A stretch of DNA of 46,501 nucleotides, from IMG/VR virus record IMGVR_UViG_2711768023_000006; one strand, written 5' to 3'. Below, one piece after another: positions 3,929-46,192 of this stretch. A model generated the notes under the pieces. It was not told the origin of the DNA. It was given only the letters and a program-made list of their open reading frames with translations, and searched no databases. Position 1 is the stretch's first letter, and each line of letters begins with the position of its first letter. The position numbers and the translations under genes were made by a program. Origin of the DNA: a virus. Its lineage: Duplodnaviria; Heunggongvirae; Uroviricota; Caudoviricetes.

Positions 3929-6016
3929 ATGTTTGCTTCAGTTAAAGAACTGGTTGGATTACCGGGGATGCCGGGAACGGAGCAAGGCGTTCGCTATTCA
4001 ATCAGGAAGTATGCAACCAGCGAAACCAGCAGACGCCGCAAGAAAGGCGCTAAAGGTTTTGAATACAGCATTGACTGTTTACCTGAAGTGACACAGCAGG
4101 CATTACGCGAACGTTATGCCCTGCAACTGATGACGCAAAAAGCCGATGAATCACCGGCTCCGGTGGTGACAAAGGCCAGACGCTCGTCTGCCGTGGTTGA
4201 TGCGGTGGAGGCATATCGCGGATCACCACAACTGATGGTCGAACGCCTCAATGCCCTGACTGAAAACCAGCGCCAGGTGGCAGACGCACGCATTGCGATC
4301 GTCAGTGAGGTGCTGAAATTCACGCAACAACCCGGTTTCAGCTGCGCTAAAGCTATCCGGTTCCTCGTTAACAGCCTGGCACGATCACAACTGGACGAGC
4401 GCATTGTGGCAATGGTTGAGACGGCGAACGCCAAAAAGGGAAACAGCCGCGCGTTGAGTGAAATCACGCTGAAACGCTGGATTGCGGCCTTTAACAAGGC
4501 ACAGAACGCCGCTGAACGCCTGCTTTTACTGGCACCGGGTAAACGCCAGGAAATAAAAGCCGAAGATATTAACTGGCTGCCCGAATTTCTGGCGCAGTAT
4601 CGCCAGTCAAACGGCCGACCAATGACCGAGGCTTACGAGGATTTTGTTGCTGAATGGCAGCACCGGCACGCTGATGAGCCTTATATGCTCGATATCATGC
4701 CCTCTTATGACACCATTCGCCGCGCAATGAAGAAACTGCCGGAAGTGGTGAAACAAAAAGGCCGGGTAACTGGCAGTGAATACCGTCAGCTTGAGGGATT
4801 CACGCGCCGCGACTGGTCCAGAATGCCGGTGAATTATGTCTGGATTGGTGACGGTCACGGCATGAAGCTGAAATGCGCGCACCCGGTTCACGGGCGGCCA
4901 TTCGCACCGGAAGTGACCTTTGTTATCGACGGTGGCACGCGCTTTGTGGTGGGCTGGAGCCTTGACCTGGCTGAAAATGTTTTCGCCGTAGCCGGTGCCA
5001 TACAGCACGGTATTCGCCATCATGGCAAACCGTTTCTGTATTACTCGGATAATGGCTCCGGGGAAACCGCCGACGTCCTGGATAAGGAGATTGTGGGGAT
5101 ACTGCCACGACTGGGGATTAATCACCCGACAGGGATTGCCGGTAATCCGCAGGGACGGGGCATTATCGAACGGCTTAACCGCACATTACCGATGCGCATA
5201 GCCCGTAAATACCGCACCTATTTCGGGAAAGGAGCAGATCGCGAGACGTTACGTAAAACCAACCGCGATTTACGCTCGGCATTCAGTGCCCTGCAACAGG
5301 GCAAACGGCTGAACGCCCGGCAGCAGTCAGCGATGCGTGATTTACCGTCCTGGTCTGAACTGATTGATGCCATTCGTGACGGTGTTGAGTGGTACAACAA
5401 CCGGCCGCACGATGAATTACCCATGAAGCCGAACGGTAAACATTACAGCCCGGCGGAGTTCAGAAAAAAACGCCTGGCGGAAGAGGACACGGAAATTGAA
5501 TGGCTGTCCGATGTTGAACTGCGGGATATGTTCCGGCCGATGGTGGAGCGCCCTGTAAGACGCTGTGAAATACGCTGGCTGAATAATATTTACTACGCGC
5601 CCGAGCTGCGTGACGAGCATGGCCGTAAGGTACTTATCAGCTATGACATTCATGATGCCGAACGAATTACCGTGCGCCGCCCGGATGGCAGCGTGATTTG
5701 CGAGGCGGTATGGGACGGCAATAAACGCGAAGCCTTCCCTGTCAGCGCGGAATACTACAAACAGCAGCAGCGCCTTAAAGGCATGCGTAAACGCGCAGAG
5801 GAAAAAATCCGTGATGCCGAGGATGAGGTTGTCAACGTGCTGGAGCACAAGCCGCAGGAGCCCTGGCTGGAAAACATATACCGCCCTGTGGGTAATACGG
5901 TGACCGTTCAGCAACCGGTCGCTGACGATGAACCTGATGAAGAATACGAGCGTAATTTCCAGCGGGGATTGCAACTGCTCGAAGCGAAATTAAAAGAAAG
6001 TGATCCGCTGGCCTGA
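3929..6016 (+). CDS. A: Mu-type DDE transposase A
   Basis: 695-aa protein directly after ner, size and position of MuA. Confidence 0.85.
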   Translation: MFASVKELVGLPGMPGTEQGVRYSIRKYATSETSRRRKKGAKGFEYSIDCLPEVTQQALRERYALQLMTQKADESPAPVVTKARRSSAVVDAVEAYRGSPQLMVERLNALTENQRQVADARIAIVSEVLKFTQQPGFSCAKAIRFLVNSLARSQLDERIVAMVETANAKKGNSRALSEITLKRWIAAFNKAQNAAERLLLLAPGKRQEIKAEDINWLPEFLAQYRQSNGRPMTEAYEDFVAEWQHRHADEPYMLDIMPSYDTIRRAMKKLPEVVKQKGRVTGSEYRQLEGFTRRDWSRMPVNYVWIGDGHGMKLKCAHPVHGRPFAPEVTFVIDGGTRFVVGWSLDLAENVFAVAGAIQHGIRHHGKPFLYYSDNGSGETADVLDKEIVGILPRLGINHPTGIAGNPQGRGIIERLNRTLPMRIARKYRTYFGKGADRETLRKTNRDLRSAFSALQQGKRLNARQQSAMRDLPSWSELIDAIRDGVEWYNNRPHDELPMKPNGKHYSPAEFRKKRLAEEDTEIEWLSDVELRDMFRPMVERPVRRCEIRWLNNIYYAPELRDEHGRKVLISYDIHDAERITVRRPDGSVICEAVWDGNKREAFPVSAEYYKQQQRLKGMRKRAEEKIRDAEDEVVNVLEHKPQEPWLENIYRPVGNTVTVQQPVADDEPDEEYERNFQRGLQLLEAKLKESDPLA

Positions 6017-20235: not shown

Positions 20236-20356
20236 CGGTCAGTGGCGGGGGTCGAACCCGCATACATGATCCACCCGGAGGCAGGCACCGACTTTACCAG
20301 TTAAGCGTACACTGACCGCCTGTTTATTTTATATTCATCCTTTATGCGGAGGCAAT

Positions 20357-33870: not shown

Positions 33871-34421
33871 CCCTGACCCCGCATCAGCGCGCCCTGTTGC
33901 AGTTACTGCCTGACGGGCTGGCATGGGACAAGCGTCCGTCATCCGTACTGGCATCATTATGTCTGGGCCTCAGTCATTCGACAGCGCGTGTATCCTGGAC
34001 GGGTAAACAGCTGCTTGCCGAGCGTTTCCCTGACACGTCGCGCCTGCTGCTGGAAGACTGGGAGCGTTATCTCGGGCTTCCCGAGTGTGATATGGCCGGA
34101 GCCACCCTCACGGAGCGACAGCGTTATGCCGGAAATAAATACCGGATGAAGCCCTCGCTGAACCGTGAATTTTATATCCGGTTTGCGGCGGAGTTTGGTT
34201 ATCAGATTGACATTCAGCCCTCACCGGATTCGCAGTGGGTCAGTATTGTCACGATTAACAGTGAAACCGGCTACCGGAATATGAATGTGCTGGATGATAT
34301 TCTCACGCCGCTGCGTATTTATGAAGGCGGTGCGCTGGAATGTATTCTGAACCGTTATAAGCCTGCATGGCAGACGTTTATTTACGTTTATGCAAACAGC
34401 CATGAAGAGGAGACTATTTAA
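33861..34421 (+). CDS. Baseplate/tail protein (Mu gp48-like)
   Basis: 186 aa immediately upstream of tail fibre. Confidence 0.55.
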
Positions 34422-35302
34422 TGTTTCATGTTGATAATAATTCCGGCGTGGCGAATATGCCTGCGCTGGCACCGGCGCAGAGTAATACCACCACCTGGTT
34501 TACCGAAGGTGACGGACAAAAAGGTATCAGCTGGATTGGTCAGGACTGGCTGAATATTCTCCAGGCCGAACTGCTGAATATTCTGGCTGAAGCCAGTATT
34601 CAGCCGGATAAGGCGCAGTTAAACCAGCTTACGCTGTCCATTAAAGCCATTATCGCTGCGAATGCCTTTTCCCGGAAAAATAACCTGAAAGAAATTGCTG
34701 ATGCCGGTGCGGAGGCCCAGCGTCTGGCCCGTGGTTATCTTGGTCTGGGGACGCTTGCCACAAAAAACAGTCTTGGTCCCGCTGACGTTAATGCCCTGGC
34801 GAAGGATCAGAATCTCGCCGACCTGGAGAATAAGGGAACCGCCCGTAATAATCTGGATGTTTACAGCAAAAGCGAAGGTGATAACCGTTACCTGCGCAGG
34901 GAGCAGAACGGCGCAGACATTCCGGATAAAGGGGCTTTTATCGATAACGTCGGTTTACGGGAAACGGTAAACAGGGCGGCGAATGCCCTGCCATCGGACG
35001 GCACCGCCGTTGCCGCGAACAGGCTGGCAAATGCCCACACAATTAATGGTGTTCCCTTTGACGGGACGCAGGATATCACTATCTCATCAGGAACAGTAAC
35101 CGCCATAAGACTGGGGTCGGTGACCGCACATATGCCCGGAACATGGGAAAGCTGGGATCTGAATCTGGGGGGCGGCAATGTTCTTACCGGAATTAAAGTA
35201 CAGGATGTCGGTAAGAATACGGCAGATAACGTCGGCGGCGTGTATTACCGGCCGTTGCAGTATCTGTTAAATGGAGCATGGGTGACGGCTGCAAGTATAT
35301 AA
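34421..35302 (+). CDS. S: Tail fibre protein S (constant N-terminus plus currently expressed variable C-terminus)
   Basis: 293 aa; codons 173-181 span a gix-like recombination site; downstream part lies in invertible segment. Confidence 0.75.
34938..34963. other. Left invertase crossover site (gix/hix-like, 26 bp) inside S
   Basis: TTATCGATAACGTCGGTTTACGGGAA, imperfect dyad with central TC; inverse partner at 36255-36280. Confidence 0.6.
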
Positions 35303-35310
35303 TGATATTC

Positions 35311-35336
35311 AGAAGGCCTTCCGGCCTTCTTTATTA
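35311..35336. terminator. Bidirectional terminator hairpin between S and convergent U'
   Basis: AGAAGGCC-TTCC-GGCCTTCT followed by TTATT; overlaps U' stop. Confidence 0.6.
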
Positions 35337-35855
35337 CTGTGGCTGCTCAGGCCATTTAATGGCGTTAAATTCAGCTTCTGTTTTAATGGCGGGTAGTTCC
35401 ATTTTCTTCACCTGACTGATGTATGCCATCCATTGGGTAAGTGCTGCTCTGTCTTCATCGCTGATGGTGCCCAGTTGTAGCTCCGTTCTCCAGTCATTAA
35501 TTTTTTCATATGCCTGATTAAGATATGACTGGCGCATTGCTTCCAGTTTTCTTGCGTAGTTAACCGGAATACGGGAGATTATGCCATTATCAAACTTCCA
35601 GTTTCCTGAAATATCCGTGCCTTCAGGGAGTTCATCGACCTCAACCACAGAAAACCCCGCAGGATACAGCGCCGAGGCGTCCTGTGATATTGAGCAGATA
35701 ACGCCGCTGTCAGGTGTTATGCAAAGTTTATATTTTTTGGTGAATAATGGCAGGGATTCGTAGAAATCCTTACCATCTTCACTCTGGAAATACTGAACAT
35801 TATTACCATATGGCATATTTTCAGGATAATAACGGGTTATATTTTTTAGTTCCAT
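35334..35855 (-). CDS. Tail fibre assembly protein (U'/Tfa) in the currently silent orientation
   Basis: 173-aa protein on minus strand inside invertible segment, RBS GGAGG, directly downstream of alternative fibre tip. Confidence 0.7.
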   Translation of the reverse strand: MELKNITRYYPENMPYGNNVQYFQSEDGKDFYESLPLFTKKYKLCITPDSGVICSISQDASALYPAGFSVVEVDELPEGTDISGNWKFDNGIISRIPVNYARKLEAMRQSYLNQAYEKINDWRTELQLGTISDEDRAALTQWMAYISQVKKMELPAIKTEAEFNAIKWPEQPQ

Positions 35856-35906
35856 AAAATCCTCCTGGAAATAAATCTGTTTTAAAATATATTATTTACT
35901 GACTAT

Positions 35907-36268
35907 TTATAACTGAGATACCGTAATCCATGTACCTCCGACTAATTTTTGCAGGGGTCTGAATGCTATAAAATCGTTTGAAGCATCAACTTTACTGTCA
36001 ATCTGCAGGCCTGCCATAACATTACCGTACGCAGAGTAATATGCCCCACCGTACATTACCTGCCTGTTCTCTGCTCCCAGCCTGATATCCTGGATATATC
36101 GGGAATCCGCATCCTGCTGTGTTATACCAGAAGTGATGTTTATGTCCTGCGTCCCGTCAAAGGGAACCCCATTAATATTTCTTGGGGTGGCGAGTCTATT
36201 CGCGGCAACGGCGGTGCCGTCCGATGGCAGAGCATTCGCCGCCCTGTTTACCGTTTCCCGTAAACCGA
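35907..36268 (-). other. Silent alternative tail-fibre C-terminal cassette (Sv')
   Basis: Minus-strand frame ...[60 protein letters not shown]...GGTWITVSQL*; first ~45 codons near-identical to S codons 178-222, no start codon, in-frame stop just upstream of repeat. Confidence 0.65.
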
Positions 36269-36280
36269 GGTTTTCAGGAA
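36255..36280. other. Right invertase crossover site (gix/hix-like, 26 bp)
   Basis: TTCCCGTAAACCGAGGTTTTCAGGAA, very close to recalled Mu gix sequence; central GA is reverse complement of left-site core. Confidence 0.65.
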
Positions 36281-36345: not shown

Positions 36346-36918
36346 ATGCTGATTGGGTATATCAGGGTGTCAACAAATGACCAGAATACGGCGCTACAAA
36401 GAAATGCGCTGGAATGTGCAGGATGTGAGCTGTTTTTCGAAGACAGAATAAGCGGTAAGACAAGGGAGCGTCCCGGACTTAAACGCGCATTAAAGCGACT
36501 CCGGCCAGGGGATACCCTGCTGGTCTGGAAACTGGATCGCCTTGGACGCAGTATGCAGCACCTTGTCCTTTTAACAGAAGAACTCCGGCAACGCGGCGTT
36601 AACTTCCGCAGCATTACGGACAATATTGATACATCCACTCCCATGGGACGTTTCTTTTTCCATATAATGGGCGCGCTGGCGGAAATGGAGCGGGAACTCA
36701 TTATTGAACGTACACGCGCGGGTCTTGCTGCTGCCCGTGCTCAGGGGCGTCATGGCGGCAGACCTCAGAAACTGACAGAGAAAGAGCGGGAGCAAATCGC
36801 CCGTTTGCTGGCTAATGGCGAGTCCCGTAAACAAATCGCACTGATATTTGATATTGGCCTTTCCACCCTTTATCGTTATTTTCCTGCCTCACCAGCTCCG
36901 TCACCAAAAGTACCGTGA
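36346..36918 (+). CDS. gin: Serine recombinase, DNA invertase Gin/Hin/Pin family
   Basis: MLIGYIRVSTNDQNTALQRNALECAGCE...GDTLLVWKLDRLGRSMQHL...MGRFFFHIMGALAEMERELIIERT, near-identical motifs to Gin. Confidence 0.95.
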   Translation: MLIGYIRVSTNDQNTALQRNALECAGCELFFEDRISGKTRERPGLKRALKRLRPGDTLLVWKLDRLGRSMQHLVLLTEELRQRGVNFRSITDNIDTSTPMGRFFFHIMGALAEMERELIIERTRAGLAAARAQGRHGGRPQKLTEKEREQIARLLANGESRKQIALIFDIGLSTLYRYFPASPAPSPKVP

Positions 36919-37003: not shown

Positions 37004-39058
37004 ATGTCAGACTCCAAGTGGAAAATGCTCTCCGCCATGCCCGGAGAGTTTTCAGTCAAGGTTGCCGGTGGCACGGTGGCATTTATTGAAAGCCCTTTCC
37101 GCCCTTCGGGTAATAAAGGGGGGATCACCTTCGCAGACTGCGTGATCCGCTTCAGCACGAAAGAGCCATTATGGGTAATGCCGGTATCCGGTAATCCCAG
37201 TGCAGAAATCACCAGTTCAGGCGTGACTGGCATCATTCCAATCACATCTGACGTGGCCGGAACGCTCACGCCCTCCGACTGGAATGCACCGGATAACGCC
37301 GGGCCTTCCGGTAGCACGAATGGCAGCAGTTCAGAGCCGGAATATTACTTTGTTGTCATTCTCGCGGGTCAGTCAAATGGCATGGCCTACGGCGAGGGGC
37401 TGCCGTTACCGGATTCGTTTGACCGCCCGGACCCACGCATTAAGCAACTGGCACGCCGCAGTACGGTAACGCCCAACGGTACGTCGTGTACATACAACGA
37501 CATCATTCCGGCAGACCACTGCCTGCATGATGTTCAGGATATGAGCGGGATAAACCACCCGAAAGCTGATCTGGCAAAAGGCCAGTACGGGACTGTCGGT
37601 CAGGGGTTGCATATTGCCAAAAAACTGCTTCCCTATATCCCACAGAATGCCGGGATACTTCTGGTGCCCTGTTGTCGTGGCGGGTCAGCATTCACCACTG
37701 GAGCCGACGGCTCATTCAGTGAGGCCAGCGGTGCTTCCGCTGATTCTTCACGCTGGGGGGCCGGTAAACCTCTGTATCAGGACCTGGTAAGCCGCACCAA
37801 AGTCGCGCTGGCGAAAAACCCGAAAAACAAACTTCTGGCTGTGGTCTGGATGCAGGGAGAGGCAGACCTTGCCTCAGGAAGCCAGCAGCATAATAGTTTA
37901 TTCACGGCCATGGTTCAGCAGTTCAGAACTGACCTGGCTCCGCTTGCTGCGCAGTGCGTGAGTGGAAATGCCACCACGGTGCCGTGGATTTGCGGTGATA
38001 CCACGTATTACTGGAAAAACGCTGGCACCGATAAATATGAGGCAGTATACGGTGGCTACAAAGGCAAGGAAGCACAGAAAATTTTCTTTGTACCGTTCCT
38101 GACGGATGAGAATGGACAGAGCACGCCAACGAATGCTCCGGCGGAAGACCCGGATATTGTGGCTGTCGGGTATTACGGTGCAGCATCCCGAACCCAGGGC
38201 AGTTTTGTTTCGACACAGCGTGACAGCCATTTCAGCTCATGGGCACGCAGGGGCGTCATTTCAGACCGTCTGGCCTCAGCTATTATGCTCCATGCAGGGC
38301 GCACGGCTGAACTGATGCGTGGGCAGACCGTGACACCACCGGATGAGAAGCCGTCACCTGATACACCATCAAAACCGTCCACGCCACCCGCAGACACCAC
38401 GACGATGAGTACGCTATTTGCTTACCGGGCATCTGAGTCTGAAGGACGGTTGACACCACAGGGTTGGGCTGCCGGAGGTGGCAAGGCTCAAATCGTGGAT
38501 GATGCCGGAGCCAGCGGGGGTAAGGCAATGAAACTGACCAAGGAAACAGGAAGAGCCCCCTGGTACCTTGAGCATGATGCTGGTAATGGTGCGGACCTGC
38601 TGGGTAAAGGTGGTCTTGTCAGTTGTCGTTTTAAACTCGATGGCGCGCTTACGGCTAATCAGTACGCACTGGCGCTGTACTGGCCGGTTTCTGCCCTGCC
38701 GCAAGGGGTTACTCTGGAAGGAAATGCCGGTCATAACCTGCTGGCATCGTTCTACGTACAGAGCGATGCCACAGACCTTAACGTGATGTATCACAAAGGA
38801 AACACGGCGCAGAACACGAAGCTGGGGTCATTCGGCGCATTTAATAACGAATGGCATACGCTGGGCTTCCGTTTTGCCGGTAACAACAGTATTGAGGTGA
38901 CGCCGGTCATTGATGGTAAGGACGGGACACCATTCATGCTGTCGCAGTCTCCGGTCGGCACGTTTACGGCAGACAAGTTGCGCGTGACCGATATCACTAA
39001 AAATGCGACTTACCCGGTACTGATTGACAGTATCGTGGTGGAAGTGAATAACGCGTAA
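37004..39058 (+). CDS. SGNH/sialate-O-acetylesterase-like hydrolase with Pro/Thr linker and C-terminal beta-rich domain
   Basis: 684 aa; GQSNGMAYGEG block with catalytic Ser, downstream RDSH (Asp/His) block; linker PPDEKPSPDTPSKPSTPPADTTT; no signal peptide evident. Confidence 0.6.
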   Translation: MSDSKWKMLSAMPGEFSVKVAGGTVAFIESPFRPSGNKGGITFADCVIRFSTKEPLWVMPVSGNPSAEITSSGVTGIIPITSDVAGTLTPSDWNAPDNAGPSGSTNGSSSEPEYYFVVILAGQSNGMAYGEGLPLPDSFDRPDPRIKQLARRSTVTPNGTSCTYNDIIPADHCLHDVQDMSGINHPKADLAKGQYGTVGQGLHIAKKLLPYIPQNAGILLVPCCRGGSAFTTGADGSFSEASGASADSSRWGAGKPLYQDLVSRTKVALAKNPKNKLLAVVWMQGEADLASGSQQHNSLFTAMVQQFRTDLAPLAAQCVSGNATTVPWICGDTTYYWKNAGTDKYEAVYGGYKGKEAQKIFFVPFLTDENGQSTPTNAPAEDPDIVAVGYYGAASRTQGSFVSTQRDSHFSSWARRGVISDRLASAIMLHAGRTAELMRGQTVTPPDEKPSPDTPSKPSTPPADTTTMSTLFAYRASESEGRLTPQGWAAGGGKAQIVDDAGASGGKAMKLTKETGRAPWYLEHDAGNGADLLGKGGLVSCRFKLDGALTANQYALALYWPVSALPQGVTLEGNAGHNLLASFYVQSDATDLNVMYHKGNTAQNTKLGSFGAFNNEWHTLGFRFAGNNSIEVTPVIDGKDGTPFMLSQSPVGTFTADKLRVTDITKNATYPVLIDSIVVEVNNA

Positions 39059-42014: not shown

Positions 42015-43187
42015 GTGGTGATGCACACTGTTGCTGATGTGATGACAGGAAACGATGGTGAATACTGTTTCCATGCGCGGACTGGAAAATATGGTGTGTA
42101 TCTGAAACCGGGCTGGCACAACGAGTACAACGTTGGCGACATTGCTGTATATGAGGACTCAAAGCCCGGCACGCTGAATGACTTTCTGATTGCTCCTGAT
42201 GAGGGCGACCTGAAACCGGATGTCGTCAAACGCTTTGAGGAAATGGTGGCGCAGGCGCAGCAGAGCGCCGGGGCCGCAGCCGGAAACGCACAGCAGACGG
42301 CGCAGGATGTGGCGGCAGCCGCAGGTTATGCCCGCGCAGCAGAGCAGGCCAAAAATGACATTGATGCTGCGCTGACCGGCACTCTGAAAACGGCTAACCA
42401 TCTGTCTGAAATCGCAGCAGCAGGCGAAAAGGCACAACAGAAGTCCCGGGATAATCTGGGGCTGAAAAGTGCGGCCACGATGGAAGCACAGAGCGACATT
42501 TACGACCGGACAAAAGGCCGTCTGGCGATACCCGGCGCATTCGGCTTTGGGTGTGCTTTTCTGCCTGAAGATGTTATCCGTTTTGACACTAAGAGTGATT
42601 TCCTGGCCTGGGTAAGGAATGCGCTGCCAGGTGAATATTCCGTTGCTGGCCCCTACGACATCATCATACCCGACACACGGTTTGAAGGGGTGCTCAGCAT
42701 CCGGTGGACTGATGCACGCCCTGAGACAACAGAACCGAGGTACAGAGCCAAATCCCTTACTTTTTACGGCATTAACGGCCCCATTTATCACACCCGCTAC
42801 TGCTACTGGCCCATATCCAGACTGACTGGCTGGGTGAAAATAAATATAACCACAGAAGATATTATTTACAGAATCGTGGCGAGCTCTGTCTGCAACAGAT
42901 GGGGAGACCCTGACATTGGCGGGCTGATTATTGCTGCGTACCAGGGAGAAGCTGACGGTGATAAAGTCATCAGACTTGTCAGGGGGCAGTCATACAGAGG
43001 CTCACGACTGGGACCGGTGGGGATTTCAGTGCCCAGTACTCCCACCGGAACGTATATAGCATCCCCACAATTTTTCATTACGGGATGTTCAGAGCATTCA
43101 TTACCGGGGTCATATTGCGCCCTGTCCGGGGTGCCGGATGCTCATGTCTCTGGCGCAATGCCCGGGCTTTTTATTCGCACATCGTGA
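42015..43187 (+). pseudogene. 5'-truncated phage tail fibre gene (second prophage remnant)
   Basis: Tail-fibre-like C-terminal region with Ala/Gln-rich coiled segment; ORF begins right at IS66 end; followed by Tfa. Confidence 0.55.
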
Positions 43188-43197
43188 GGAATGCACC

Positions 43198-43761
43198 GTG
43201 GAAATTAAAAAAATCATTAATCCCCGTTATACCGAAAGTGGCGCAGTAGACTGTGACGTTTTTTTTGACGACAGGGACCAGGCAGTCCCCTACACAGCCA
43301 CCGCTGATGATGTCGCACCGACGGGTCAGCGAATCTGGCAGGAACTGCAAAGTGGCAAATGGGGTGAGATAGCCCCATTCACTGTGACACCAGAAATGCT
43401 GGAAGCGGCCAGAGAGGCCAGACGTCAGGAAATTGAAGCATGGCGCACAGAACAGGAGGCGAAGCCGTTCACGTTTGAATGGAACGGTCGTATCTGGAAT
43501 GCTGGCCCCAACTCACTGGGCCGCCTGTCCCCGGTAGTCATGCTGGCAAAATCTGTCACAGCACAAACACATATGGCGTGGAGCGATGCCGATAATCAGC
43601 AGGTGAAACTGTCGATGCCGGAACTGGAAGAACTGGCGGCAGCAATGGTGCAGGCGCAGGTCGATCGCAACGATGAGATTTATCGCCGTCAGCGTGAAAT
43701 GAAAGAGGAGCTGAGCAGTCTGGATGATTTGGCTTCAATTCGGGCGTTTGACGTTAAGTAA
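43198..43761 (+). CDS. Tail fibre assembly protein (Tfa)
   Basis: GTG at 43198 with RBS TGAGGA; VEIKKIINPRYTESGAVDCDVFFDD... typical Tfa N-terminus. Confidence 0.65.
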   Translation: MEIKKIINPRYTESGAVDCDVFFDDRDQAVPYTATADDVAPTGQRIWQELQSGKWGEIAPFTVTPEMLEAAREARRQEIEAWRTEQEAKPFTFEWNGRIWNAGPNSLGRLSPVVMLAKSVTAQTHMAWSDADNQQVKLSMPELEELAAAMVQAQVDRNDEIYRRQREMKEELSSLDDLASIRAFDVK

Positions 43762-43858
43762 TGAATAAGCCGCAACTGGCGGAATCACAGAAGACCGCTT
43801 TGCTTACCGAGGCGGAGTCTGTCATCCGGCCGCGGGGGCGTGCTGTCAGGCTGAACAN

Positions 43859-44404
43859 CTACAGCACCAAATCAGGTCTGGGTGGCGGACCTGACGTATG
43901 TTGCCACACAGGAGGGATGGTTGTACCTCGCTGGCATCAAAGATGTTTATACGTGCGAAATTGTCGGCTACGCCATGGGAGAGCGCATGACAAAAGAGCT
44001 GACAGGTAAAGCCCTGTTTATGGCGCTCAGGAGCCAGCGCCCACCTGCCGGGCTAATCCACCACTCTGATCGAGGTTCACAGTACTGCGCATACGATTAC
44101 CGGGTCATACAGGAGCAGTCTGGTCTGAAAACATCAATGTCGCGTAAAGGTAACTGTTACGACAACGCTCCGATGGAAAGCTTCTGGGGAACGCTGAAAA
44201 ATGAGAGCCTGAGCCACTATCGTTTTAATAACCGGGATGAAGCCATCTCAGTAATACGGGAATACATTGAGATTTTCTACAATCGTCAGCGTCGTCACTC
44301 TCGTCTGGGGAATATCTCCCCGGCAGCCTTCAGGGAAAAATATCATCAGATGGCTGCTTAAAAAAAGAACAAATGGTAGTGTCCGCTATTGCCAGTACAC
44401 CTCA
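43859..44404 (+). mobile_element. IS600 partial copy (3' 546 bp) after N at 43858
   Basis: Identical to 1667-2212 of first copy incl. orfB C-terminus and terminal ...GCCAGTACACCTCA. Confidence 0.85.
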
Positions 44405-44476: not shown

Positions 44477-46192
44477 TTATGAATGGTGCAGTTGTGAGCC
44501 GTTTTCAGACAATCGCAGGGCCAGTACCTCGTCAGTCAGCTGACGGTAAATCTGCTGTTCAGTCTCACGCATCACCTGTGCACCGGCTTCCCTCTCCGCA
44601 TCCGCATCACCGCTCAGACCTGATGCTTTCAGCCGGTCAGCCACCCTCTGAGGGTACTCATTCTCCAGCATCTCATATTTCTGCTCTTCTGCCAGCGCCC
44701 AGCGGTCAGCTTCCGTACGCTTCAGTACAGCATGCCATGGTCCCCAGAGGGAGAACCAGTCCGTAAATTCATTCTCTTCACGGCTTCTGACCATGGCTTC
44801 GGCAGTGCGGAGGTCATTTGCTGTCACTCCCGACACGCCATAGAAACGCATTTCCTTCACGGCAGTGGAGAGCTGAAGTTTCTCTGCGAGCATGGTCTGG
44901 AAGGCCAGGTAGACTTCTATCTCATCCACAAAATGGAGAGTTCTGACTTTATCCCGGGCAATGTCCTCCAGAATTTCGAGGCGGAACATTTCCCTGCCCA
45001 GGGAGAGCAGAGCGCCGGTATCATTATCGAAAAGGCCTTCTGATGCCTGATGGACCAGGAGGGTTTTCCGGAGATTGTTCCATGTGAGCGCGACACGGTC
45101 CTCACAGCTCTCAGTGGCATCAGCAGCAACAGCGAAAGACTGCTGTCGAAGCTCCGCAGAGGCACTGAGTTTTTCCAGCCATGCAGCGACCTGTTCACGG
45201 AATCCGGAGGTATTGCGTGCAGAGACGGTATCGGAAAGGCGGTCAAGGAACGCGGAAAAGGTGTTGGCGTGCTCTTCATGTTCAAAAGCATGCCATATCT
45301 GTGATACATCAGATTGTTTGTTTTCCGGGAACCATGCTGTCACGGCATCAGCCAGGGGGCGATGGAGTGTATTCTGTTGTCCGTCACTCATGGAGAAGTA
45401 AATCCGTGGGCCGTGGTAGTCCGGTTGGGCGGTTTGTTGCGACAGAGACTCCCTGATCCGTGAGGACAGAGGATTGTCTTCGAGGATGATAGTGCAGGTC
45501 GGATCAAGGCTAAGTATATTTTCCGGAATGTATGTGATGCGATTCTCGCGGCACCGGAAAAATATCTCGGTTTCCTCTGAGTGATGATTTCTTACAGGTA
45601 CGGCTGGTAGGCTTTCCAGAAGATTAGTACTTACATCGAGCGCTTCCAGTGATTCAGGTAACTCAGGGAGAAATGTCAGCTGGTTATTTCTTACTGAGAG
45701 CACTTCCAGCGATGTAGGTAATTCAGGAAGCATGGTTAGCTGATTGTTATCTGCATTAATATATTCCAGCAATGCAGGCAATTCAGGAAGCATGGTTAGT
45801 TGGTTGTTATCTACATCAAGATGTTTCAGAGATGCGGGTAATTCAGGAAGTGTTGACAGGTGATTGTCACAGGCGTCAAGGTATTCCAGCGATGCTGGCA
45901 ATTCTGGTAATGATATTAGGGCATTCTGAGTAATTTCCAGAACAGTGATTTGAGGTGGTAAGTTGTCAGGTAGCGAGGACAGATTTAAACGATTCAGTTG
46001 AAGCTCACTGAACTGATTGATGAGACATTCTTTAAGTAGGGAGACCGCTTCATTCCGATTTTCACCGGGGAGCGCTTGTTTTTCCCATTTATCCCATGCT
46101 GAAAAGTAATCAGCATATGTACCGGAAATAGTGTTATAAAAAGAATTTTGGGACAATGAAAAGTTATTATTTATCGGTAACATGATGGACAT
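44477..46192 (-). CDS. ipaH: IpaH-family type III secretion effector (LRR plus NEL E3 ubiquitin ligase domain)
   Basis: MLPINNNFSLSQNSFYNTISGTYADYFSAWDKWEKQALPGE..., LxxLPxLP leucine-rich repeats, conserved C-terminal NEL domain; canonical start probably at 46183. Confidence 0.93.
   Translation of the reverse strand: MSIMLPINNNFSLSQNSFYNTISGTYADYFSAWDKWEKQALPGENRNEAVSLLKECLINQFSELQLNRLNLSSLPDNLPPQITVLEITQNALISLPELPASLEYLDACDNHLSTLPELPASLKHLDVDNNQLTMLPELPALLEYINADNNQLTMLPELPTSLEVLSVRNNQLTFLPELPESLEALDVSTNLLESLPAVPVRNHHSEETEIFFRCRENRITYIPENILSLDPTCTIILEDNPLSSRIRESLSQQTAQPDYHGPRIYFSMSDGQQNTLHRPLADAVTAWFPENKQSDVSQIWHAFEHEEHANTFSAFLDRLSDTVSARNTSGFREQVAAWLEKLSASAELRQQSFAVAADATESCEDRVALTWNNLRKTLLVHQASEGLFDNDTGALLSLGREMFRLEILEDIARDKVRTLHFVDEIEVYLAFQTMLAEKLQLSTAVKEMRFYGVSGVTANDLRTAEAMVRSREENEFTDWFSLWGPWHAVLKRTEADRWALAEEQKYEMLENEYPQRVADRLKASGLSGDADAEREAGAQVMRETEQQIYRQLTDEVLALRLSENGSQLHHS

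Follow-up and report, generated by a model that had tools for sequence, protein, structure and literature searches.

Exchange of tail-fibre tips by inversion of a DNA segment, catalyzed by invertases of the Gin type, has been textbook knowledge since the 1980s. In the G segment of bacteriophage Mu and in SfMu, the invertible region follows the baseplate genes gp47 and gp48, lies within the fibre gene S and is followed by gin and then by com/mom. The C segment of phage P1, inverted by Cin, is 4.2 kb long, contains two tail-fibre assembly (Tfa) genes (U and U') and has cin on the other side of the operon (bioRxiv 10.1101/2022.07.24.501295). Other members of the Din family of serine invertases act on the P segment of e14 (PinE/PinQ) and the H segment of Salmonella (Hin), using 26-bp sites and an enhancer placed within the invertase gene, approximately 100 bp from the nearest site (PMC12529663; PMC3798978). 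Phage tail fibre genes were found among the frequent targets of programmed inversion in a 2023 survey (PMC9881135), and an invertible host-specificity region of Sp18, the Mu-like prophage of strain O157:H7 Sakai, was noted as early as 2009 (Asadulghani et al.). Here, we analyze the corresponding element in a 46,501-nt stretch of viral DNA (IMG/VR record IMGVR_UViG_2711768023_000006), referred to in its whole length as the window, in which two alternative fibre tips are accompanied by a single Tfa gene.

The prophage in the window is Mu-like, as shown by a transposase open reading frame (ORF) of MuA size (3929-6016), head and tail genes and, further along, a baseplate gene of the Mu gp48 family, a Gin-like invertase gene and a gene of the Mom family. 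The switch occupies the position of the Mu G segment, i.e. 3' of the gp47 and gp48 baseplate genes (the gene immediately 5' of S matches PF10076, Phage_Mu_Gp48) and 5' of gin. It is considered very probable that the element is the G-segment equivalent of a Mu-like (Sp18-type) Escherichia coli/Shigella prophage, whose fibre tips are flipped by a Gin-family enzyme. Its principal parts are the following:

34938-34963 (unstranded): left (gixL-like) site, TTATCGATAACG-TC-GGTTTACGGGAA, with the TC core at 34950-34951; 22/26 positions identical to the Mu gix at the S/G boundary, exact match to the Din-family pattern, natural breakpoint beginning at 34950.
36255-36280 (unstranded): right (gixR-like) site, TTCCCGTAAACC-GA-GGTTTTCAGGAA, with the GA core at 36267-36268; recognized by alignment with Mu gix, the Din pattern match and breakpoint mapping.
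34950-36268 (unstranded): invertible segment, 1,319 bp from core to core; reverse complementation of exactly this interval converts FORC_029 to NCCP 13983.
34421-34949 (+): constant N-terminal part of S (Sc, codons 1-176), outside the segment; part of ORF 34421-35302, which matches phrog_1833 tail fiber protein over its full length (E 7e-141); identity with the N-terminus of Mu S is 47%.
34950-35302 (+): tip A, the variable C-terminal part that S has when the segment lies as in the window (stop codon 35300-35302), defined by translation, with no tfa 3' of it on the same strand.
35907-36268 (-): silent tip B, a start-less alternative C-terminus of S, defined by translation; in frame with Sc after inversion, giving a 296-aa S-B.
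36346-36918 (+): gin-like serine DNA invertase gene (190 aa), outside the segment; PF00239 Resolvase (E 2e-51), PF02796 HTH_7 (E 5e-15) and phrog_125 DNA invertase.

The original prediction had postulated two 26-bp gix-like sites with TC and GA cores in inverted orientation, and both withstood scrutiny. Each is built as 12-2-12, with matching asymmetric 2-bp cores, and both agree with the published consensus of the Din family and with the accompanying table of hix, gix, cix, pix, mix and bix sites (PMC3241671). A search pattern derived from that consensus, TTCNNNNAAACNNANGTTNNNNNNAA, matches only these two sites in the 46.5-kb window, where 0.06 matches were expected by chance, and three or more matches were obtained in 0/100 shuffled sequences. 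The Mu gix at the S/G boundary reads TTATCCAAAACC-TC-GGTTTACAGGAA, and the likeness to Mu runs 14 nt further into the segment. The neighbouring gene was likewise correctly assigned to the Gin family, its product sharing 74% identity with Mu Gin and 72% with P1 Cin. The protein consists of an N-terminal catalytic domain and a C-terminal helix-turn-helix, and its catalytic motifs are intact, with the Ser9 motif IRVSTNDQ and the DRLGRS motif both present.

Between the sites, ORF analysis, a PF02413 match and a terminator scan revealed the gene order that had been proposed: the 3' end of S, a hairpin, tfa on the minus strand and the start-less tip, also on the minus strand. When 34950-36268 was reverse-complemented in silico, the 176 constant codons of S ran in frame into tip B to give a protein of 296 aa, with tfa 51 nt further on, behind AGGAGG. 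The expected fusion of the constant part to the alternative tip, with tfa downstream, was thus obtained, and the arrangement is that of Mu and P1, with the constant part of the fibre outside the segment, alternative 3' parts inside it and in-frame fusion by inversion. The same ORF is annotated in genomes carrying the flipped form; in FORC_043, which is 99.7% identical to the in silico inverted window over 2,498 bp, RefSeq has an intact 891-bp S followed by tfa.

Natural inversion is documented most clearly by E. coli FORC_029 and NCCP 13983, whose chromosomes differ by 1 bp in length. Once 34950-36268 is inverted, there are 0 mismatches between them over the 42,498 bp compared, and the endpoints may lie anywhere from 34950/36268 to 34969/36249 and nowhere else, that is, within 20 bp starting from the predicted core. 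In the DLI.5a genome, the inversion is the only difference between two prophage copies over 2,498 bp, and in all pairs tested the crossover is bounded on its outer side by 34950, where the predicted TC core begins. The window orientation was counted in 20 complete E. coli genomes (at a query coverage of at least 80%) and the flipped one in 6, 3 genomes holding one copy of each; among Sp18-like viral contigs of IMG/VR, the corresponding numbers are 13 and 4. As far as genome comparison can demonstrate it, the segment really inverts, with crossover at the core, and both orientations arise in nature. For the compact 1.3-kb switch, this is direct comparative proof of activity in natural E. coli.

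The orientation in which tfa is not co-transcribed with the tip is approximately three times commoner than the other in both collections, an excess that may be due to biased inversion, to selection or to clonal sampling. In the two-copy genomes DLI.5a (L021/L022) and TOE17 (L023/L024), each orientation is represented by one copy; the prophage is transposable like Mu. Both DLI.5a copies carry a frameshifted invertase gene and large internal deletions. Their flip is either older than the frameshift or the work of a different Din invertase acting in trans.

These data bear on an explanation that needs no invertase, in which the two orientations result from RecA-dependent recombination between the inverted repeats of about 145 bp, the gin-like gene and its sites being incidental or inactive. 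The repeat itself had been part of the original prediction, and its left arm is defined as follows:

34950-35094 (+): left arm of the extended inverted homology; partner 36124-36268, with 121/145 positions matching (83%).

Pairing each position x with 71218-x gave an identity of 95% over the first 79 nt, then a 13-nt gap and then 84%, and past 35095 the identity is that of random sequence (30%). A repeat finder returned the same homology as two pairs of arms, 34943-35028/36190-36275 (86 nt, 93% complementary) and 35042-35091/36127-36176 (50 nt, 84%). The homology codes for the stretch that opens both tips and is common to A and B; in relatives of this prophage, the arms are 75–93% identical. 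Its presence beyond the sites is thus supported, but, contrary to what had been supposed, it is not unusual, because a P1-like phage has 165 nt at 95% identity in the equivalent position and SfMu has 58 nt (Mu has 41 nt). As in P1, each site marks the outer end of a long inverted repeat reaching into the alternative fibre genes. The canonical P1 repeats are approximately 0.6 kb long.

Arms sharing 79 nt at 95% identity would be enough for occasional homologous exchange, and the opposite orientations of the two DLI.5a copies, both with a frameshifted invertase, also speak for this explanation. However, homologous exchange needs identity on both flanks and would spread along the repeat, while the best-resolved event falls in the outermost 20 bp of the 145-bp homology and begins exactly at the predicted core. 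This restriction points to a site-specific enzyme rather than RecA and leaves homologous recombination as a minor rival. Moreover, the outer limit equals the core in every pair, and the sites conform to the family consensus and occur nowhere else in the window. Related invertases are also known to act in trans, the P segment of e14 being a substrate for PinQ, PinR and PinE alike (PMC12529663), which explains flipping where the local gene is frameshifted. Taken together, recombination by RecA alone appears extremely improbable.

We infer the current activity of the copy in the window from relatives that are 99.8–100% identical to it. It could instead be a frozen relic that no longer switches: a single assembly displays one orientation only, and some relatives (L009 and DLI.5a) have frameshifted invertase genes. 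Yet gin is intact here, its product is 100% identical to that encoded in many genomes, both sites match the consensus, and the 99.8–100% identical copies occur in both orientations, so that a relic seems very improbable.

In the proposed mechanism, the Gin-family invertase (36346-36918) would bind both 26-bp sites, cut at the central TC/GA and invert the 1,319 bp, presumably with the help of an enhancer that is bound by Fis and lies in the first ~100 nt of gin. In the window state, the late tail operon would yield S-A (293 aa), with transcription reaching the hairpin terminator, and tfa and tip B would be antisense and silent. In the flipped state, the 176-codon constant part would be joined to tip B to form S-B (296 aa), with tfa next in the operon. 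Two such states would allow a lysogenic population to release virions with two alternative receptor-binding tips, and would therefore serve host-range bet hedging, as in Mu and P1. We infer catalysis by this particular Gin, the dependence on Fis and the recognition of different receptors by the two tips.

Din invertases require a Fis-bound enhancer and depend on DNA supercoiling; in the window, supportive evidence for such an enhancer comes from the invertase gene itself.

36367-36430 (+): candidate recombinational enhancer, 64 bp, in the 5' end of gin; a G-N13-C motif at either end (GTGTCAACAAATGAC and GTGCAGGATGTGAGC), with centres 49 bp apart, starting ~100 bp from the centre of gixR.

Across 37 invertase genes left after dereplication, spanning 74–100% protein identity, the majority fraction at synonymous third positions was 0.73 for codons 1-35 as against 0.54 for codons 36-180, and near-invariant blocks were found at nt 22-41 and 73-85. 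The constraint over gin nt 1-105 (window 36346-36450) forms a family-wide footprint of a cis element within coding sequence, which is presumably the Fis enhancer. For comparison, the hin enhancer is 65 bp long, with Fis sites 47 bp apart (between centres) and located 99 bp from the nearest hix (PMC3798978). An embedded enhancer would thus fit both the synonymous constraint and the hin-like geometry, though this falls short of proof: a simple Fis-motif scan of gin yielded no clear pair of motifs, and the 49 bp between the candidate centres depart from the 47 bp of hin, so the register may be off by 1-2.

Both tips are real coding modules, as judged from their sequence conservation and relationships. 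S is intact in the window (34421-35302, + strand, 293 aa). Searches against Pfam with S and with the separate tips gave no match even at E ≤10, and the proteins were placed through PHROGs and tblastn instead. Tip A is 46–53% identical to the C-terminal tips of P1 S, SfMu S' and P2 H, and tip B is 40–47% identical to tail-fibre C-termini of P2-like, Mu-like and P1-like phages. Both belong to the family of modules capping P2 H, P1 S and Mu/SfMu S, fibres that have Tfa partners. Compared with each other, the tips are 47% identical overall and ~30% over the distal 70 aa. The distal 71 codons of tip A show a dN/dS of ~0.09 at a dS of ~0.45 (against relatives L009 and L011), values indicating that this tip is under strong purifying selection and is not decaying, although it has no co-oriented tfa. 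In the window orientation, the RefSeq entry for tip B is 'phage tail protein, missing N-terminus'; in the flipped genomes, it is an intact coding sequence of 891 bp.

What distinguishes the element from the classic systems is the region between the tips:

35334-35855 (-): tfa, the sole tail-fibre assembly gene (173 aa), co-oriented with tip B; PF02413 Caudo_TAP (E 5e-19) and phrog_136 (E 5e-56).
35311-35330 (unstranded): GC-rich 8-bp hairpin between the stop codons of S-A and tfa, found by the terminator scan; T-run TTTATTACTG on the + strand, none on the minus strand.
35856-35906 (-): AT-rich 51-nt spacer from the stop of tip B to the start of tfa, with -10-like hexamers and the ribosome-binding site AGGAGG; candidate location of a tfa promoter.

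Compared with Mu, the window has homologous 26-bp sites (the same TC/GA core and 14 further shared bases), an invertase at 74% identity and the same division into a constant Sc and an alternative Sv. It differs in the size of the segment (1.3 vs 3 kb) and of the tips (117-120 vs ~330 aa), in having one tfa instead of U and U', with a hairpin where the second tfa would be, in the spacer before tfa (51 vs 2 nt), in the length of the inverted homology (145 vs 41 bp) and in an extra 2-kb gene (SASA esterase and DUF6645) between gin and mom. The Tfa protein is 32% identical to Mu U' and 28% to Mu U, and its gene evolves at a dN/dS of 0.16–0.22 against relatives. P1 shares the serine invertase (72%) and differs in its 4.2-kb segment, its two Tfa genes and the position of cin, while e14 has two stf/tfa pairs and an AA core, and Hin flips a promoter and not a coding end.

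Thus, the Mu/P1 feature of a Tfa gene of its own after each tip is absent here. The segment contains one PF02413 gene, as opposed to two convergent tfa genes in Mu, SfMu, a P1-like phage, the P2-like pro483, Cartapus and Chris1, so it represents a variant of the Mu/P1 architecture and not a copy. The suggestion that, unlike in Mu, only one orientation has a Tfa was therefore borne out, Mu and SfMu having two each. The layout is not peculiar to this element, however. A single tfa was present in every relative of the lineage examined, down to ~80% DNA identity, including the O157:H7 (Sp18-type) copy and 17 IMG/VR loci, and also in a prophage of Citrobacter braakii that has three gix-like sites. 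Cassettes with a single Tfa were found outside the lineage as well, in Erwinia phage ENT90 and in several P2-like viral contigs, as against ~26 loci with the classic pair. The layout is both conserved and recurrent, which makes it a minority design rather than a one-off deletion.

The O157:H7 copy of the Sp18 lineage (L008) has the same order of tip, tfa and silent tip, with Sc 99%, Gin 78% and Tfa 61% identical to those of the window. It differs in its tip modules (38–46% identical) and in having no intact full-length S annotated. A published dissection of the Sp18 sites, of its two states or of its single Tfa was not found in a literature search that was incomplete for older papers, and the same search retrieved no description of the single-Tfa design.

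The cassettes of ENT90, the Citrobacter braakii prophage and the P2-like contigs resemble that of the window in having 2-3 alternative tips, one tfa, Din-type sites and an adjacent Gin-like invertase (65–80% identical); they differ in the sequences of the tips, and in the P2-like contigs tfa abuts the tip. As far as could be found, they are known as database sequences and have not been described as a class. The Citrobacter locus was one of only two useful relatives, the other being from Edwardsiella, that were retrieved by scanning genome contigs with S; the Edwardsiella locus stops at the contig edge. In C. braakii ATCC 51113 (L013, 5819-8223), gix-like sites at ~5820, 7856 and 8223 accompany at least two silent tips and one tfa, and this small multi-inversion system is similar to Min of p15B.

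The single Tfa is the only unusual feature of this switch, and it raises the question of how tip A is served in the orientation that lacks a co-oriented tfa. Our tentative answer, which we favour at slightly short of even confidence, is that Tfa is a generalist for both homologous tips and is transcribed in both orientations from its own promoter, located in the AT-rich spacer or in the 3' end of tip B. In the window state, the hairpin would then end the convergent transcripts of S-A and tfa. Generality of the protein is suggested by the conservation of Tfa over its full length (85–89%) while the tip preceding it is at most 49% identical between relatives; moreover, in L067, L070 and L082, Tfa of the same family stands 3' of an A-type tip. 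The N-terminal domain of TfaMu binds the fibre, and TfaMu remains on the virion (work cited in PMC9608196). A conserved N-terminal domain of Tfa facing varied tips suggests a generalist.

A promoter of its own is favoured by the position of the hairpin, exactly between the convergent S-A and tfa, and by the spacers before tfa, which measure 51 nt here and 69, 106 and 121 nt in other single-Tfa relatives with homologous tips, compared with 2 nt in Mu. Several observations weigh against it. A sigma-70 promoter scan of the tfa strand produced nothing that passed, and a search for 9-mers common to the region upstream of tfa and other late intergenic regions gave trivial matches only. The hairpin folds on both strands (+ strand, -16.2 kcal/mol, z -3.2; minus strand, -14.8 kcal/mol, z -4.4) but has no T-run on the tfa strand; of the bidirectional terminator proposed originally, the hairpin and the + strand T-run stand and the minus-strand T-run does not. 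In the P2-like cassettes, finally, tfa abuts the tip without any spacer, so a separate promoter is not general in single-Tfa layouts. The idea that a long spacer before tfa marks all single-Tfa cassettes was rejected, as the P2-like L040, L042 and L051 are spacer-less. The Mu-type C-activator box TTAT-N6-ATAA, which occurs in Mu Pmom, has two matches, neither near tfa or S.

Alternatively, tip A may be independent of Tfa, and the switch would then toggle between a chaperone-independent fibre and a Tfa-dependent one that may carry a Tfa cap. Strong purifying selection on a tip that never has a co-oriented tfa in the lineage is in line with this, as is the predominance of the Tfa-less orientation (20 vs 6 genomes; 13 vs 4 viral contigs). 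In the P2-like L040, L051 and L042, the Tfa-less tip has another terminal sequence than the tip that is followed by Tfa, and the coupling of tfa to its own tip is tight, with no spacer before tfa where the two tips differ in C-terminal sequence. Further support is given by E. coli M3, a strain from mouse, which retains tip A and the reversed tfa and lacks tip B and gin. On the other hand, tips A and B are homologous (47%), and A-type tips elsewhere have a Tfa next to them (P1 S/U, SfMu S'/U', L067, L070 and L082). P2 gpG and Mu U are, in addition, essential for their fibres. A Tfa-independent tip A is thus regarded as rather unlikely.

The M3 locus (L010, 3001-4740) is a natural deletion derivative of the prophage: S-tip A and the reversed tfa are still there, while tip B, the right site and almost the whole of gin are gone. 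It can no longer leave the Tfa-less orientation, and strains M1 and M18 show the same shortened match.

Finally, Tfa could be supplied in trans by another resident prophage, or particles of the A state could be poorly infectious, so that this state is effectively OFF. E. coli genomes usually carry several tfa genes, and a second chaperone-like gene (43138-43761, DUF4376) lies ~7 kb away, beside a lambdoid fibre N-terminus. Nevertheless, reliance on unrelated prophages would not be stable across hosts, the purifying selection on tip A argues against a non-functional state, and a layout conserved from E. coli to Citrobacter speaks against both. Jointly, these two possibilities are judged unlikely; supply in trans from another prophage, taken alone, is improbable, and a poorly infectious A state, taken alone, is improbable to the same degree.

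Several further features of the window were recorded. Between gin and com/mom, in a slot without a gene in Mu, a 684-aa gene (37004-39058, + strand) encodes a protein with a PF03629 SASA (sialate O-acetylesterase-type) domain and a C-terminal DUF6645; in the Citrobacter braakii relative, the same slot (L013, 8934-9896) is taken by a collagen-repeat, fibre-like protein. The product of 37004-39058 may be a second protein acting on the host surface, e.g. an O-antigen deacetylase or an accessory fibre. Past the right end of the prophage, an IpaH-type effector gene with LRR_TTSS and NEL E3 ligase domains (44477-46192, - strand) suggests that the host is Shigella or enteroinvasive E. coli. Beside it (42015-43761, + strand), there is a lambdoid 'prophage tail fibre N-terminal' gene, the DUF4376 chaperone-like gene and insertion sequence (IS) fragments. 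In the FORC_029 prophage, RefSeq lists a 'tRNA-OTHER' between the head-morphogenesis and virion-morphogenesis genes; the equivalent region of the window (~20238-20317, minus strand) contains a T-arm-like GGTTCGACCCCCGCC, and ARAGORN called no tRNA in the whole window. Ambiguous or masked bases occur at 1158 (N) and in a run from 12033, and an X in ORF 43761-44009 implies another; the region studied is free of them.

The mechanism of the switch adds little to what is known, as it is textbook material and was noted earlier for the related Sp18, and what is new is confined to a variant of the architecture, with one Tfa for two tips, which is conserved and recurrent. Recognition of the switch also corrects two database labels, since the S forms are annotated as 'hypothetical protein' and the silent tip as a pseudogene. 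It is quite possible, although we hold this with some reserve, that single-Tfa cassettes constitute a distinct recurrent design, either with one generalist Tfa that has its own promoter and a shared convergent terminator and serves all tips, or with inversion toggling the tip together with a virion-retained Tfa cap. The layout poses a testable question concerning the tip specificity and expression of Tfa, which bears on the engineering of host range by tip swapping. If true, either outcome, a generalist Tfa or a toggled Tfa cap, would revise the rule of one tip and one cognate chaperone derived from Mu and P1.

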